Positions 2,140 through 10,047 of a stretch of DNA of 15,464 nucleotides are shown here, piece after piece. This DNA comes from a virus. Taxonomy: Duplodnaviria; Heunggongvirae; Uroviricota; Caudoviricetes. Position numbers and translations under genes: made by a program. The stretch is from the IMG/VR virus record IMGVR_UViG_2869953405_000005, one strand, 5' to 3'. Below the pieces are notes generated by a model that was not told the DNA's origin, ran no database searches, and saw only the letters and a program-made list of their open reading frames with translations. Every line of letters starts with the position of its first letter. Positions within the stretch are counted from its first letter, which is position 1.

Positions 2140-2958
2140 ATGTGTCAGGTATTTGGTGTATCCAGGAGCGGTTATTACAACTGGGTACAGCATGAACCCT
2201 CAGACAGAAAACAAAGTGATGAGCGGCTAAAACTGGAGATTAAGGTGGCACATATCCGCACTCGCGAAACATATGGAACCCGGCGGCACCAGACGGAGCT
2301 GGCAGAGAATGGCATCATCGTTGGTCGTGACCGACTGGCACGTCTTCGTAAGGAGCTAAGGCTACGCTGTAAGCAGAAACGCAAGTTCAGAGCGACTACG
2401 AACTCGAACCACAATCTGCCAGTTGCGCCAAATCTGCTGAACCAGACGTTCGCTCCTACAGCACCAAATCAGGTCTGGGTGGCGGACCTGACGTATGTTG
2501 CCACACAGGAGGGATGGTTGTACCTCGCTGGCATCAAAGATGTTTATACGTGCGAAATTGTCGGCTACGCCATGGGAGAGCGCATGACAAAAGAGCTGAC
2601 AGGTAAAGCCCTGTTTATGGCGCTCAGGAGCCAGCGCCCACCTGCCGGGCTAATCCACCACTCTGATCGAGGTTCACAGTACTGCGCATACGATTACCGG
2701 GTCATACAGGAGCAGTCTGGTCTGAAAACATCAATGTCGCGTAAAGGTAACTGTTACGACAACGCTCCGATGGAAAGCTTCTGGGGAACGCTGAAAAATG
2801 AGAGCCTGAGCCACTATCGTTTTAATAACCGGGATGAAGCCATCTCAGTAATACGGGAATACATTGAGATTTTCTACAATCGTCAGCGTCGTCACTCTCG
2901 TCTGGGGAATATCTCCCCGGCAGCCTTCAGGGAAAAATATCATCAGATGGCTGCTTAA
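2140..2958 (+). CDS. IS600 OrfB (DDE transposase catalytic part, normally expressed as OrfAB by -1 frameshift)
   Basis: 272-aa ORF in the -1 frame relative to orfA; integrase-core-like sequence (HSDRGSQY...). Confidence 0.9.
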   Translation: MCQVFGVSRSGYYNWVQHEPSDRKQSDERLKLEIKVAHIRTRETYGTRRHQTELAENGIIVGRDRLARLRKELRLRCKQKRKFRATTNSNHNLPVAPNLLNQTFAPTAPNQVWVADLTYVATQEGWLYLAGIKDVYTCEIVGYAMGERMTKELTGKALFMALRSQRPPAGLIHHSDRGSQYCAYDYRVIQEQSGLKTSMSRKGNCYDNAPMESFWGTLKNESLSHYRFNNRDEAISVIREYIEIFYNRQRRHSRLGNISPAAFREKYHQMAA

Positions 2959-3001
2959 AAAAAGAACAAATGGTAGTGTCCGCTATTGCCAGTACACCTC
3001 A

Positions 3002-3143
3002 GGGTATAAGGGGTTATGGCCACCGGACTACCAAACGGCTGCCAGCCCTCTTTCAGTTTATGTGTCAGCTTTTCCGCAAGATCTGACGGCGGCGCCGCCC
3101 TGACAACATCATAGTGTTTAAATGCCATGGTTCTTTCCACCAT
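3002..3143 (-). pseudogene. N-terminal fragment of a small gene interrupted by the IS600 end
   Basis: Minus-strand ORF MVERTMAFKHYDVVRAAPPSDLAEKLTHKLKEGWQPFGSPVAITPY runs into the IS600 terminus at 3001; GGTGGAAAG precedes the second ATG (3126-3128). Confidence 0.3.
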
Positions 3144-3321
3144 CTGAAAAATAATTCTTTAAAATACCTGACATGTAATACAGAAAAAACACAAAACCAT
3201 ACCTTAAATAAAAACCTGATTATCAAGCAGATATGCATGGATAAACTACAAGACGAGATATAAACCACCCTGCATTTAAATAAACAATAAACAACATCAG
3301 AAAAATAATTCTGCTCTATGG

Positions 3322-3348
3322 TTTACATTCAAAAATATCATTTATACT
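3322..3348 (+). promoter_or_regulatory. candidate sigma70 promoter for ORF 3389..3724 (TTTACA, 15-nt spacer, TATACT)
   Basis: Hexamers read directly from the sequence at 3322-3327 and 3343-3348; spacing is suboptimal at 15 nt. Confidence 0.3.
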
Positions 3349-3388
3349 TTTCAGAACATCACCAGCAAGGCATAAACAAGGAAACTAA

Positions 3389-3724
3389 ATGAAGTGGATT
3401 GTGATTGATACAGTTATCCAGCCATCATGCGGAATATCTTTTTCAGTCATATGGAGTAAAATAAAATTAATAATCTGGTATCAATCGGATGCTTTCTTAC
3501 CTCCTGAAAGTATATTTACACTGACTCACACAGGCATCATGCTCAATAACAAAGTGCTACCTGTAACCATTTACAACGTAGTACCATTCAATAAAACATT
3601 CTGGAATTCAATCAAAAATAGCCAGGAATGCCCTACAAATACAGATAACGTATTGAATGAATGCTTTAATAACCGTTGCACTCTGCAAATATGTCCTTAT
3701 GGACTAAAACAACAAAGTCCATAA
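3389..3724 (+). CDS. hypothetical Cys-rich small protein (111 aa), orphan
   Basis: ATG preceded by AAGGA about 8 nt upstream; 6 of 12 Ile codons are ATA (manual count); C-terminal third has 5 Cys; lies in AT-rich DNA; no family recognised. Confidence 0.45.
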
Positions 3725-3758
3725 GGAGTTTACTCACATCTGACAAAATCAATATAAA

Positions 3759-3780
3759 CAGCCCCTCCGGAGAGGGGCTG
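3759..3780 (-). terminator. intrinsic-terminator-like hairpin (9-bp perfect stem, 4-nt loop) with T-rich tract on the minus strand
   Basis: CAGCCCCTC-CGGA-GAGGGGCTG; on the minus strand it is followed by TTTATATTGATTTTG; no T-tract on the plus strand. Confidence 0.45.
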
Positions 3781-4171
3781 GAGAGTGGCGCTATGTGCCA
3801 TTGCATGGTGCCGGGTGCCTCCCGGTGAATTCAGTACCAGCACCTGAATCCGCGATTATCCCATATACCTACTCGCTGATTGCCCCTCCGCACAGGGGGA
3901 TTCACCATGCCAGTTTCTTTTAACAAACTCCCCGCAAACCAGACAACAGTCAACCGCCTGAATTGTGAAGTATTTAAAAATTTCTCCCGCTAACTGATAC
4001 CCGGCTAACAGTCTGGCGTTTTCTTTTTCAGCAACGGGAAAGCAACAACCACCACACCCGCCACCAGCACACCGTCAGCCAGCACTGACATTATCCGGCT
4101 GCTGCAATGCCATTCACAAAAACAGTAAGCAATCACTTTTTACCGTAACAGGTGATAATCCAGATATGTAT

Positions 4172-4525
4172 CTACCCCAGATGAGTAATCCGAAGTTCAT
4201 CCATACCACAGGTCCTGGCTATTCTGTTGTACTCCTGAACAAGAGCAAATAATTCTGAATTAGCAACCATGAACTCATCGCAAACCCTCTGTATAGCATC
4301 ACTATTCAGAATAATAACGTCTCTTCCCGAAAGACGATCAGGAGTACAGAACAAAACTGTCAAACGGCTGAAGGCCTTTGCTCGTGCTGCATTGACTATA
4401 TCAATACGCTGCCTAAGGATGAAACACCCCGACGCCTCATCAATATTCACTCTACCCACACCATATGAATGATAAATATTTAATGCTGAAAAAACCATTA
4501 GACCGTATAACAAACACTCAATCAA
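4172..4525 (-). CDS. hypothetical protein (117 aa), doubtful
   Basis: ORF opens right after a stop with a TTG at 4525 and no Shine-Dalgarno; first ATG is codon 10; unrecognised; may be a gene remnant. Confidence 0.2.
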   Translation of the reverse strand: MIECLLYGLMVFSALNIYHSYGVGRVNIDEASGCFILRQRIDIVNAARAKAFSRLTVLFCTPDRLSGRDVIILNSDAIQRVCDEFMVANSELFALVQEYNRIARTCGMDELRITHLG

Positions 4526-4635: not shown

Positions 4636-4712
4636 TGGCGCGCTGTACTGGATTCGAACCAGTGACCGATTGCTTAGAAGGCAATTGCTCTGTCCGGCTG
4701 AGCTAACAACGC
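4636..4712 (-). tRNA. tRNA-Arg (anticodon UCU)
   Basis: 77-nt cloverleaf folded by hand: acceptor GCGTTGT/ACAGCGC, D-stem GCTC/GAGC, anticodon stem ATTGC/GCAAT with loop CTTCTAA, T-arm ACTGG-TTCGAAT-CCAGT, encoded CCA. Confidence 0.85.
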
Positions 4713-4812: not shown

Positions 4813-4888
4813 TGGTGGCCCTTGCTGGATTTGAACCAGCGACCTGGCGATTATGAGTCGCTCGCTCTCACCACTGAGCTAAAGGGCC
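4813..4888 (-). tRNA. tRNA with CAU anticodon, ileX/ileZ-like (tRNA-Ile2; Met not excluded)
   Basis: 76 nt: acceptor GGCCCTT/AAGGGCC, anticodon loop CTCATAA, T-arm GCTGG-TTCAAAT-CCAGC, encoded CCA; resembles recalled E. coli ileX but diverged. Confidence 0.8.
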
Positions 4889-4990: not shown

Positions 4991-5845
4991 TTATGACGAA
5001 TTTACCACAGATTCCGGAAAAATCAACCTAGTTACCTTTTTTAACTGCCGCTCAGCCCATGCTTCTTCAATATCAAACCGAGTCACCAGCGCATCATAGA
5101 ATTTCTTAACTGTTTTTTCCCATGACGCGCGTGTTATCTGGTTTGTCACCTCGCATATAGCATTAAATGCCTCCGTTGATGGTAGTCTTTCATAGCCACG
5201 ACCACCACAACGCTGGCAGTCTCTGATAACAGGCATACCACGTTTTACCGACTCTTCACGATGAATGGCGACACCACGCCCACGGCAATCCTTACAGGCG
5301 GTGGAAACCTCACCCTTTCCGCCACACTCCGGACAGGCAACTTTTACCACCTCCCTGACTTTTTTCCATTCTTCCCAGTAAGACGGATACACACCTTTCG
5401 TACACTTTGCCCATACCGGCGGCTTACCATCCGGATACTGGACCTTGTTTGTAAAAACTACGCTTTCAATAAATTTTTCCCCATAGCAACAAGGGCACTG
5501 CTTTTTACTCGCTGCGCTGCGGGCATAATCCTCAAAAGCGTACGAAGCCATAATGCGCATCACTACCGGTTTTATTTCTGCCGGAAGTTTTCTCAACGCC
5601 GCCACACGATCGCACCGACTGAGTGCATAATCTGCCAGTAATTCTGTTGCCCGCGCCCTGTCATTCATACTGATGCCCATTTTCCCCAGGAACGCAGAAA
5701 ACCCCATCTCAGCCCGATTCTGTGTCATGCCCTGCGCGGCCATCACATCAGTGATACTCAGCGCATCTTTTGACGTTGAGGCCGATGCATCGGTCAGGCA
5801 AGGGGATTTTGGGGAGTAGTATTTCGGTAAATCTTCCAGTTTCAT
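4991..5845 (-). CDS. putative lambdoid late antiterminator Q-like protein (284 aa, DnaJ-type Zn-finger motifs)
   Basis: Sits between rusA and terminator/tRNAs as in lambdoid late-control regions; CPECGGKG, CKDCRGRG and CQRCGGRG motifs; ATGA overlap with the rusA stop; Q assignment rests on position and motifs, not a verified alignment. Confidence 0.5.
   Translation of the reverse strand: MKLEDLPKYYSPKSPCLTDASASTSKDALSITDVMAAQGMTQNRAEMGFSAFLGKMGISMNDRARATELLADYALSRCDRVAALRKLPAEIKPVVMRIMASYAFEDYARSAASKKQCPCCYGEKFIESVVFTNKVQYPDGKPPVWAKCTKGVYPSYWEEWKKVREVVKVACPECGGKGEVSTACKDCRGRGVAIHREESVKRGMPVIRDCQRCGGRGYERLPSTEAFNAICEVTNQITRASWEKTVKKFYDALVTRFDIEEAWAERQLKKVTRLIFPESVVNSS
4999..5026 (-). promoter_or_regulatory. 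candidate late promoter (pR'-like): TTGATT, 16-nt spacer, TAAATT on the minus strand
   Basis: Hexamers read from the sequence; overlaps the 3' end of the Q-like ORF; predicted start lies about 40-60 nt upstream of the terminator at 4925-4949. Confidence 0.25.
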
Positions 5846-6216
5846 TTTTTGACCTGCTCTTCATGCATTATGGGGTAAATCTTCACCCCCAGACGTCCAC
5901 CAGATACTGGCTGACCACGAACGATATTGATTTCATCAAACTGCTCATCGTCCATTAACACTCCCGCATGTGTCAGTGCATCCAGTGGTGCTTTCAGGAT
6001 ATTGTCCAGGTCACGACGGCGCTTATCCGGTGGCTCTGCAATAATCTTTATCGCCAGTCTTCCGGACAGGCTTAATTTCAGTCGCTGCTGACGGACAATA
6101 AGCGCCACATCCCGGCGATAACGCTCACCGGCTTTTGATACAAAATATGTGTTGTCACGACGTCGCCAGTAAGTATTCACCGTCGGCGGATAAGGTAAAA
6201 TAAACTCATGACGCAT
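5842..6216 (-). CDS. rusA: RusA-family Holliday junction resolvase (124 aa)
   Basis: Resembles recalled E. coli RusA (RRRDLDN... motif region); nin-region position upstream of Q. Confidence 0.8.
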   Translation of the reverse strand: MRHEFILPYPPTVNTYWRRRDNTYFVSKAGERYRRDVALIVRQQRLKLSLSGRLAIKIIAEPPDKRRRDLDNILKAPLDALTHAGVLMDDEQFDEINIVRGQPVSGGRLGVKIYPIMHEEQVKK

Positions 6217-6807: not shown

Positions 6808-8777
<1,970 letters not shown>

Positions 8778-9931: not shown

Positions 9932-10047
9932 GGGCAAATCCAGTCCGTTATAAAAACGCCGGTAAATCGTTCCCAGAGAACCGTGAGGTAGCCTGAGTTT
10001 AACGGACACTCCTTCCTGAAATAGAATGGCATCAGAAGGAGCTAATA

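Follow-up and report, generated by a model that had tools for sequence, protein, structure and literature searches.

A reading frame in the late region of a decayed prophage probably encodes IraL, a known RssB anti-adaptor

Background

What is encoded by a small, AT-rich reading frame that runs against the late genes of a broken lambdoid prophage, and would its product still matter to the host? The question is raised by a stretch of 15,464 nucleotides from a virus of the class Caudoviricetes (IMG/VR record IMGVR_UViG_2869953405_000005), referred to below as the window. On its plus strand, at 3389..3724, lies an intact open reading frame (ORF) that extends from an ATG start to a TAA stop and codes for 111 amino acids. 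A first-pass annotation, made from the sequence letters without database searches, delimited this ORF correctly and described it as a self-contained orphan whose protein it did not recognize. The latter description is wrong. The ORF is very probably iraL, a prophage-borne paralogue of iraM, whose product would serve as an anti-adaptor of RssB and thereby stabilise sigma-S (RpoS). The gene is already known and has been experimentally characterised in uropathogenic Escherichia coli and in Shigella sonnei; the finding, although real, thus had its explanation beforehand, and it mainly corrects the record by returning to this ORF the name iraL and the role of a known regulator of RpoS stability. 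What the window appears to hold is an intact phage-derived switch inside the wrecked prophage of a Shigella-type genome, one by which the level of the general stress sigma factor would be raised in growing cells. The authors who characterised iraL suggested that it helps Shigella and uropathogenic E. coli to meet changing or stressful environments (PMC4045071).

Identification of the ORF as iraL

The product of the ORF belongs to the NCBIfam family NF007393, "anti-adapter protein IraM". In a search with profile hidden Markov models, a check that the first-pass annotation had itself proposed, the protein scored 162 bits, above the curated cutoff of 121, and the match is a whole-protein one, with residues 1-110 aligned on positions 1-113 of the 114 positions of the profile. 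The family name is provided by NCBIfam only; Pfam scans of the same product returned no family at E <= 0.01 or at E <= 10. Chain A of the PDB entry 8TWD, which comprises residues 1-78 of IraM from E. coli K-12, was matched with an E-value of 6e-31, and the alignment with the K-12 protein extends without gaps over 107 residues, of which 61% are identical. By reference to this family, residues 1-78 are predicted to form a PmrD-like beta-barrel with a helix that binds RssB, followed by a tail with four cysteines (Cys4 tail) at residues 81-105.

The similarity to IraL of E. coli CFT073 (WP_000871291.1, locus c1429) is much higher, with 110 of the 111 residues identical and L74S as the sole difference. 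Codon 74 (3608-3610) reads TCA (Ser) in the window, whereas TTA (Leu) is what the copies of CFT073, E. coli 042, E. albertii and phages have at this place. The serine variant is the common Shigella allele: in the protein collection, the exact product of the ORF is listed as 'IraM [Shigella sonnei] / MULTISPECIES Shigella' and occurs on about 1000 contigs. At the level of DNA, 597 of the 601 nucleotides between 3200 and 3800 are the same in CFT073, with four differences in a segment that spans the whole promoter, the coding sequence and the 3' flank.

The distinction between iraL and iraM was drawn by Hryckowian et al. (2014, mBio, PMC4045071), who assigned to iraL those genes that exhibit at least 95% nucleotide identity to the CFT073 gene across the coding region and at least 96% across the promoter region. 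The window gene lies above both thresholds. A K-12-type iraM, on the other hand, is defined by at least 95% identity together with a homologous promoter, and the window gene departs from the K-12 gene (b1160; PDB 8TWD, PMC10844676) in both respects, since the proteins are 61% identical and the upstream DNA cannot be aligned, the two promoter regions being unrelated. The two also differ in their regulation as described, K-12 iraM being PhoP-dependent and stress-induced and iraL being a gene of the logarithmic phase, and IraL carries a C-terminal extension of four residues (QQSP) relative to K-12 IraM. As for the supposed orphan status, 1446 of the 5426 complete E. coli genomes carry the same DNA with an annotation as a member of the IraM family.

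Promoter, transcription start and putative regulatory sites

The expression signals proposed in the first-pass annotation, namely an AAGGA motif and a pair of candidate -35 and -10 hexamers, fit a transcript that has been mapped experimentally. In CFT073, the end of the iraL mRNA was determined by 5' RACE (rapid amplification of cDNA ends) as 'ACATCACCAGCAAGGCATAAACAAGGAAAC...' (PMC4045071), and ACATCACCAGCAAGGCATAAACAAGGAAAC is found in the window from position 3356 onward. By sequence identity, the start and a 5' untranslated region (UTR) of 33 nt can thus be transferred to 3356..3388 (plus strand), in agreement with the complementing iraL fragment used in that work, which ran from -100 to +33 (PMC4045071). 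The Shine-Dalgarno sequence AAGGA (3378-3382, plus strand) is located 6 nt ahead of the ATG. Just upstream of the transferred start, the -10 hexamer TATACT (3343-3348, plus strand) ends 7 nt before it, and the -35-like hexamer TTTACA (3322-3327, plus strand) is found 15 nt further upstream; both hexamers recur unchanged in CFT073 and in E. coli 042. Sigma-70 elements were predicted upstream of the mapped start in the original study (PMC4045071), and we infer that they correspond exactly to TTTACA at 3322 and TATACT at 3343. Throughout the -35 and -10 hexamers, the start, the Shine-Dalgarno sequence and the UTR, the window and CFT073 are distinguished only by single-base differences at 3355 and 3386.

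This pair of hexamers is missing from the output of the consensus promoter scanner because the latter requires a spacer of 16-18 nt, and the spacer here measures 15 nt. The two matches that the scanner did report between 3000 and 4100 (3281-3309 and 3440-3467) are no more than expected by chance and were discarded. A sigma-70-type promoter composed of the -35 element at 3322, the -10 element at 3343 and the start at 3356 would be expected to transcribe iraL alone, antisense to the late region, in the course of exponential growth.

A different mode of expression would follow if the gene were a functional orthologue of iraM, silent in normal growth and induced through PhoP/PhoQ by Mg2+ starvation, instead of a constitutive anti-adaptor of the logarithmic phase. 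Such a reading could appeal to the common protein family and to a direct repeat resembling the PhoP box, TGTTTATTGTTTATTTA, which is located at 3277-3293 on the minus strand (-79 to -63 from the start) and deviates by one mismatch from KGTTTA-N5-KGTTTA. The site lies, however, in AT-rich DNA, and at least one match with no more than one mismatch was obtained in 39 of 200 shuffled sequences, so that the repeat is non-significant and can be taken as a lead only. Furthermore, no alignment can be made between the DNA upstream of the gene and the promoter of K-12 iraM, the two becoming similar only at about 4 nt ahead of the ATG, the identity to IraM is limited to 61%, and iraL was reported to be active in the logarithmic phase without any added stress (PMC4045071). 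We therefore regard a PhoP-dependent iraM orthologue as improbable and retain the assignment to the log-phase iraL. Later transcriptome papers report that iraL is up-regulated in CFT073 lacking Fur, and that it rises by 1.6 log2 units when the temperature is changed from 23 to 37 C. A search for a Fur box between 3200 and 3400 returned a best match of 11 out of 19 positions, which is below the values obtained for shuffles of the region and gives no sign of direct control by Fur. Neither the PhoP-box lead nor the Fur-box lead counts as evidence of regulation.

Interaction with RssB and stabilisation of sigma-S

In the mechanism that we envisage, RssB acts as the adaptor that hands sigma-S to ClpXP; RssB blocked by IraL would no longer deliver sigma-S, the half-life of which would be prolonged, and the general stress regulon of the lysogen would be pre-armed by the stabilised sigma factor. 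The experimental foundation of this scenario comes from the study of CFT073 and its relatives. IraL co-purifies with RssB and, in two-hybrid assays, binds its N-terminal receiver domain only; the sigma-S half-life in the logarithmic phase is approximately 5 min in the wild type and 2.5 min in the CFT073 delta-iraL mutant; deletion of iraL in S. sonnei lowers the log-phase level of sigma-S; and K-12 given iraL with its native promoter exhibits a raised level of sigma-S (PMC4045071).

The crystal structure of the complex of IraM with RssB (PDB 8TWD) reveals three clusters of contacts (PMC10844676), which we mapped onto the gapless alignment of IraM with the product of the ORF. Cluster I, which faces the 4-5-5 surface of the RssB receiver domain (I4, I6, W22, K26 and I42), is retained in full, with five of five residues kept in the window protein. 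Three of five residues are kept in cluster II, which contacts RssB's C-terminal domain (the exceptions being T13S and L75I), and two of four in cluster III, which contacts the RssB linker (with the changes H63N and I64V). P66 of IraM is kept as well. Four of the nine residues that contact the C-terminal domain and the linker therefore differ between K-12 IraM and IraL, and binding to the N-terminal domain only is a characteristic of IraL. As judged from the alignment, the pattern of conserved contact residues would fit the published mode of binding.

The PmrD-like fold of the N-terminal part could suggest another function, in which the protein would be a PmrD-like connector that acts on some further response regulator besides RssB, e.g. 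by shielding a phosphorylated receiver domain, with RssB as just one of its targets. PmrD, which protects phospho-PmrA (PDB 4HN7, 2RQX), is a protein of 85 amino acids with a different target and a different outcome; it exhibits only 13-19% identity to the window protein and lacks the Cys4 tail. The PmrD family of Pfam (PF11183) is listed for members of the IraM family in a precomputed table, and in our scans its profile matched neither the window protein nor K-12 IraM at E <= 10. Given that all cluster I contacts to RssB are kept, and that no partner besides RssB has been reported, we attach very little probability to a connector of this kind. IraL and PmrD share the fold only.

Several considerations weigh against an active RssB anti-adaptor in the source strain. 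Binding to RssB and the effect on sigma-S are known from CFT073 and S. sonnei and are transferred to this strain by sequence; the prophage is heavily decayed, with insertion sequences IS1, IS600 and IS21 and with its lysis genes lost, so that the phage may supply other regulatory inputs; the spacer of 15 nt in the promoter is suboptimal; the residue altered in the Shigella allele, L74S, adjoins position 75, a contact of cluster II with RssB's C-terminal domain; and in a host with a defective rpoS or rssB, iraL would be without effect. One could go further and regard the gene as a decaying remnant, a passenger of a dead prophage that has ceased to play a part in the physiology of the host, in line with the disruption by IS1, IS600 and IS21 and with the truncation of a neighbouring gene of the DUF1737 family. 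However, the coding sequence, the Shine-Dalgarno sequence, the promoter and the UTR are all intact and nearly identical to those of the functional CFT073 copy, the exact allele is carried on the approximately 1000 Shigella contigs mentioned above, the S. sonnei delta-iraL mutant has a sigma-S phenotype, and iraL is enriched in Shigella as well as in uropathogenic E. coli relative to commensals (PMC4045071). Passive decay thus appears highly unlikely to us, and we infer that the window copy, in a decayed prophage riddled with insertion sequences, would be expressed and active as an RssB anti-adaptor.

The conserved cysteines of the C-terminal tail

Cysteines of the ORF product are found at positions 14, 81, 92, 97 and 102. 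The first-pass annotation had counted five of them in the C-terminal third; five is the correct number for the protein, of which four belong to that third and the fifth is Cys14. The four C-terminal cysteines build the motif C-P-x10-C-x4-C-x4-C-P-Y-G (3629-3703, plus strand). A profile was searched against 1.84 billion representative proteins, and about 50 relatives among small proteins were retrieved, which are named IraM in Citrobacter, Salmonella, Enterobacter, Cronobacter, Kosakonia and others. Long matches in multiple stretches (in proteins of roughly 260-3100 amino acids), which were also returned by this deep search, were treated as noise from repeat proteins. RssC of Salmonella and the IraM-named proteins of Citrobacter, Enterobacter, Cronobacter and Kosakonia are small proteins of the same architecture and likewise possess the Cys4 tail motif, at 20-51% identity to the window protein.

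In an alignment of 39 representatives of the family, with identities down to 20%, C97 and W72 are conserved in 100% of sequences, C81 and C102 in 97%, and C92 and P103 in 95%. The tail motif of the family can be written as C-P-G-N-x7-C-x4-5-C-x4-C-P-[YF]-G, and C81, C92, C97, C102 and P103 are all present in the window protein. No positions of the IraM/IraL/RssC family across Enterobacteriaceae are more strongly conserved than the four tail cysteines together with P103 and W72. The IraM protein that was crystallised did not include residues 79-107, and the tail was described there as less conserved, flexible and proteolytically unstable (PMC10844676). A first structural model, calculated from 12 close sequences, was poor, with a predicted local distance difference test score (pLDDT) of 62; it was superseded by an AlphaFold2 model based on the 39-sequence alignment, with which the pLDDT of the tail increased from 30-42 to 68-74. 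When the profile of the tail alone was compared with the PDB, the only matches were to CCCH zinc fingers, with non-significant E-values of 3-4 and a faint likeness in the spacing of the cysteines. In the structural and genetic literature that we searched, no paper on the function of the tail cysteines was found. It is tantalizing to consider that the Cys4 tail forms a small module, either binding a metal (probably zinc) or sensitive to redox conditions, by which the stability or the activity of the anti-adaptor is controlled, and we offer this as a tentative suggestion that we ourselves view with some doubt. If the tail does bind a metal or sense redox conditions, it would constitute an additional input to the control of RpoS. 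The Cys4 tail may be the only new point of the present analysis, and a role for it is put forward as a hypothesis.

Location in the prophage

The iraL gene of the window is situated between the Q gene and the tRNAs on one side and the lysis region truncated by IS600 on the other side of a decayed lambdoid prophage. The surrounding phage genes are encoded on the minus strand and include the antiterminator Q (4991-5845), RusA (5842-6216), tRNA-Arg(tct) (4636-4712), a second tRNA with the anticodon CAT (4813-4888), a small DUF3927-like ORF (4005-4136) and a fragment of a DUF1737 gene (2955-3143), the latter truncated by IS600. The middle tRNA-Arg of CFT073 is degraded in the window. The ORF is thus antisense to Q, RusA, the two tRNAs and the DUF1737 fragment, that is, to the Q-to-lysis unit; the first-pass annotation had likewise described it as opposite to the phage late operon. 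The same antisense place, with Q and the tRNAs on one side and the holin-lysozyme cassette on the other, is taken by iraL in CFT073 and E. coli 042 as well as in the phage vB_EcoS-640R1. The CFT073 copy shares the promoter, the UTR and this slot with the window gene; it encodes L74 and resides in the complete potB prophage, whereas the window copy encodes S74 and resides in a prophage that is cut by insertion sequences and from which the phage lysis cassette is missing.

The interpretation of iraL as a prophage moron, likewise advanced in the first-pass annotation, is supported by its accessory character, its deviant base composition, its own promoter with a start that matches the one mapped in CFT073, its antisense position in the late region, where complete lambdoid prophages and four deposited phage genomes carry it at the corresponding place, and its absence from 43 related phages. 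With this respect, iraL resembles other morons, such as stx in the Q-S interval of Stx phages or bor and lom of lambda, which are also accessory genes of deviant G+C content, located in the late region, endowed with their own promoters and expressed from the prophage. However, stx is co-directional with late transcription and iraL is antisense to it, and, relative to the hairpin that follows stx1B in the phage VT1-Sakai, iraL is found on the side of the lysis genes.

This hairpin, which in the window begins 35 nt past the iraL stop codon, was identified by a terminator scan and by folding as a G+C-rich element (3759-3780) with a 9-bp stem and a 4-nt loop, and the stretch of 79 nt around it has a predicted energy of -27.4 kcal/mol (z = -3.0). 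The first-pass annotation was right about its presence, but it is not evidently the terminator of the ORF. As a terminator of iraL it was rejected on the grounds that its T-run is on the opposite (minus) strand and that the element is common to the 43 Stx and lambdoid phage records that do not contain iraL; in VT1-Sakai, it is on the late strand, at a distance of approximately 240 bp downstream from stx1B. It looks like a terminator-like element of the phage backbone that would act on the late (minus) strand, with iraL converging on it. In the region downstream of iraL no other hairpin was found, so that iraL is without an intrinsic terminator with a U-tract of its own, and for this gene the element is at best a 3' hairpin devoid of the tract. 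It has the look of a late-strand terminator, conserved among these phages, at the border of the moron slot.

The remainder of the window illustrates the extent of the decay. It contains two identical copies of IS1 (508-1275 and 10498-11265), two copies of IS600 (1738-2958 and 9984-11980, the second one split by IS1) and the istAB genes of IS21 (6808-8777). At 13713-15464 on the minus strand, a gene for an E3 ubiquitin ligase of the IpaH family of type III effectors (NF046045, 563 bits) runs off the end of the window. The load of insertion sequences and the IpaH gene point to a Shigella-type chromosome (an ipaH island). An ORF of 378 amino acids at 12008-13144 (plus strand) and one of 117 amino acids at 4172-4525 (minus strand) matched no NCBIfam or Pfam family.

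Base composition and codon usage

The promoter and the coding sequence of iraL are contained in an AT-rich island, which according to the composition profile extends from about 3100 to 3750, has a G+C content of 30-36% and is sharply bounded by flanks of about 45-55%. The G+C content of the ORF itself is 34.5%, compared to 49.3% for the whole window. The first-pass annotation had reported an extreme usage of the ATA codon, with 6 of 12 isoleucines; the six ATA codons were counted correctly, the total is 13 (with four ATC and three ATT), and the share of ATA is explained by base composition. It amounts to 46%, compared to a value of 0.43 for A/(A+C+T) at third positions, and in K-12 iraM ATA is used similarly, for 8 of 18 isoleucines. 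AUA usage was therefore rejected as a special signal: the frequency of ATA is a consequence of the low G+C content and carries no separate message. The CAT-anticodon tRNA introduced above is called Met by ARAGORN; genes of identical sequence in E. coli 042 and CFT073 carry the RefSeq annotation tRNA-Ile, the reader of AUA. A tRNA that may read AUA is thus found 1.1 kb from a gene whose isoleucine codons are 46% ATA.

Distribution and selection

A megablast search with the segment 3100-4000 against complete E. coli genomes retrieved 1432 genomes at a coverage of at least 80%, in which the ORF is annotated as 'anti-adapter protein IraM'. In the 1446 genomes that contain the coding sequence, it is found in one to three copies, always with at least 90% identity, and it is also present in four deposited phage genomes. 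A search for related loci based on a narrow alignment yielded Escherichia and Shigella only. Comparison of iraL with iraM yields proportions of nonsynonymous (pN) and synonymous (pS) differences of 0.22 and 0.68, respectively, indicative of purifying selection. In the chromosome of S. flexneri SFBU0723 (CP182557.1), two separate loci code for iraM-type proteins that share 62% identity with the window protein, so that iraM is duplicated in some Shigella.
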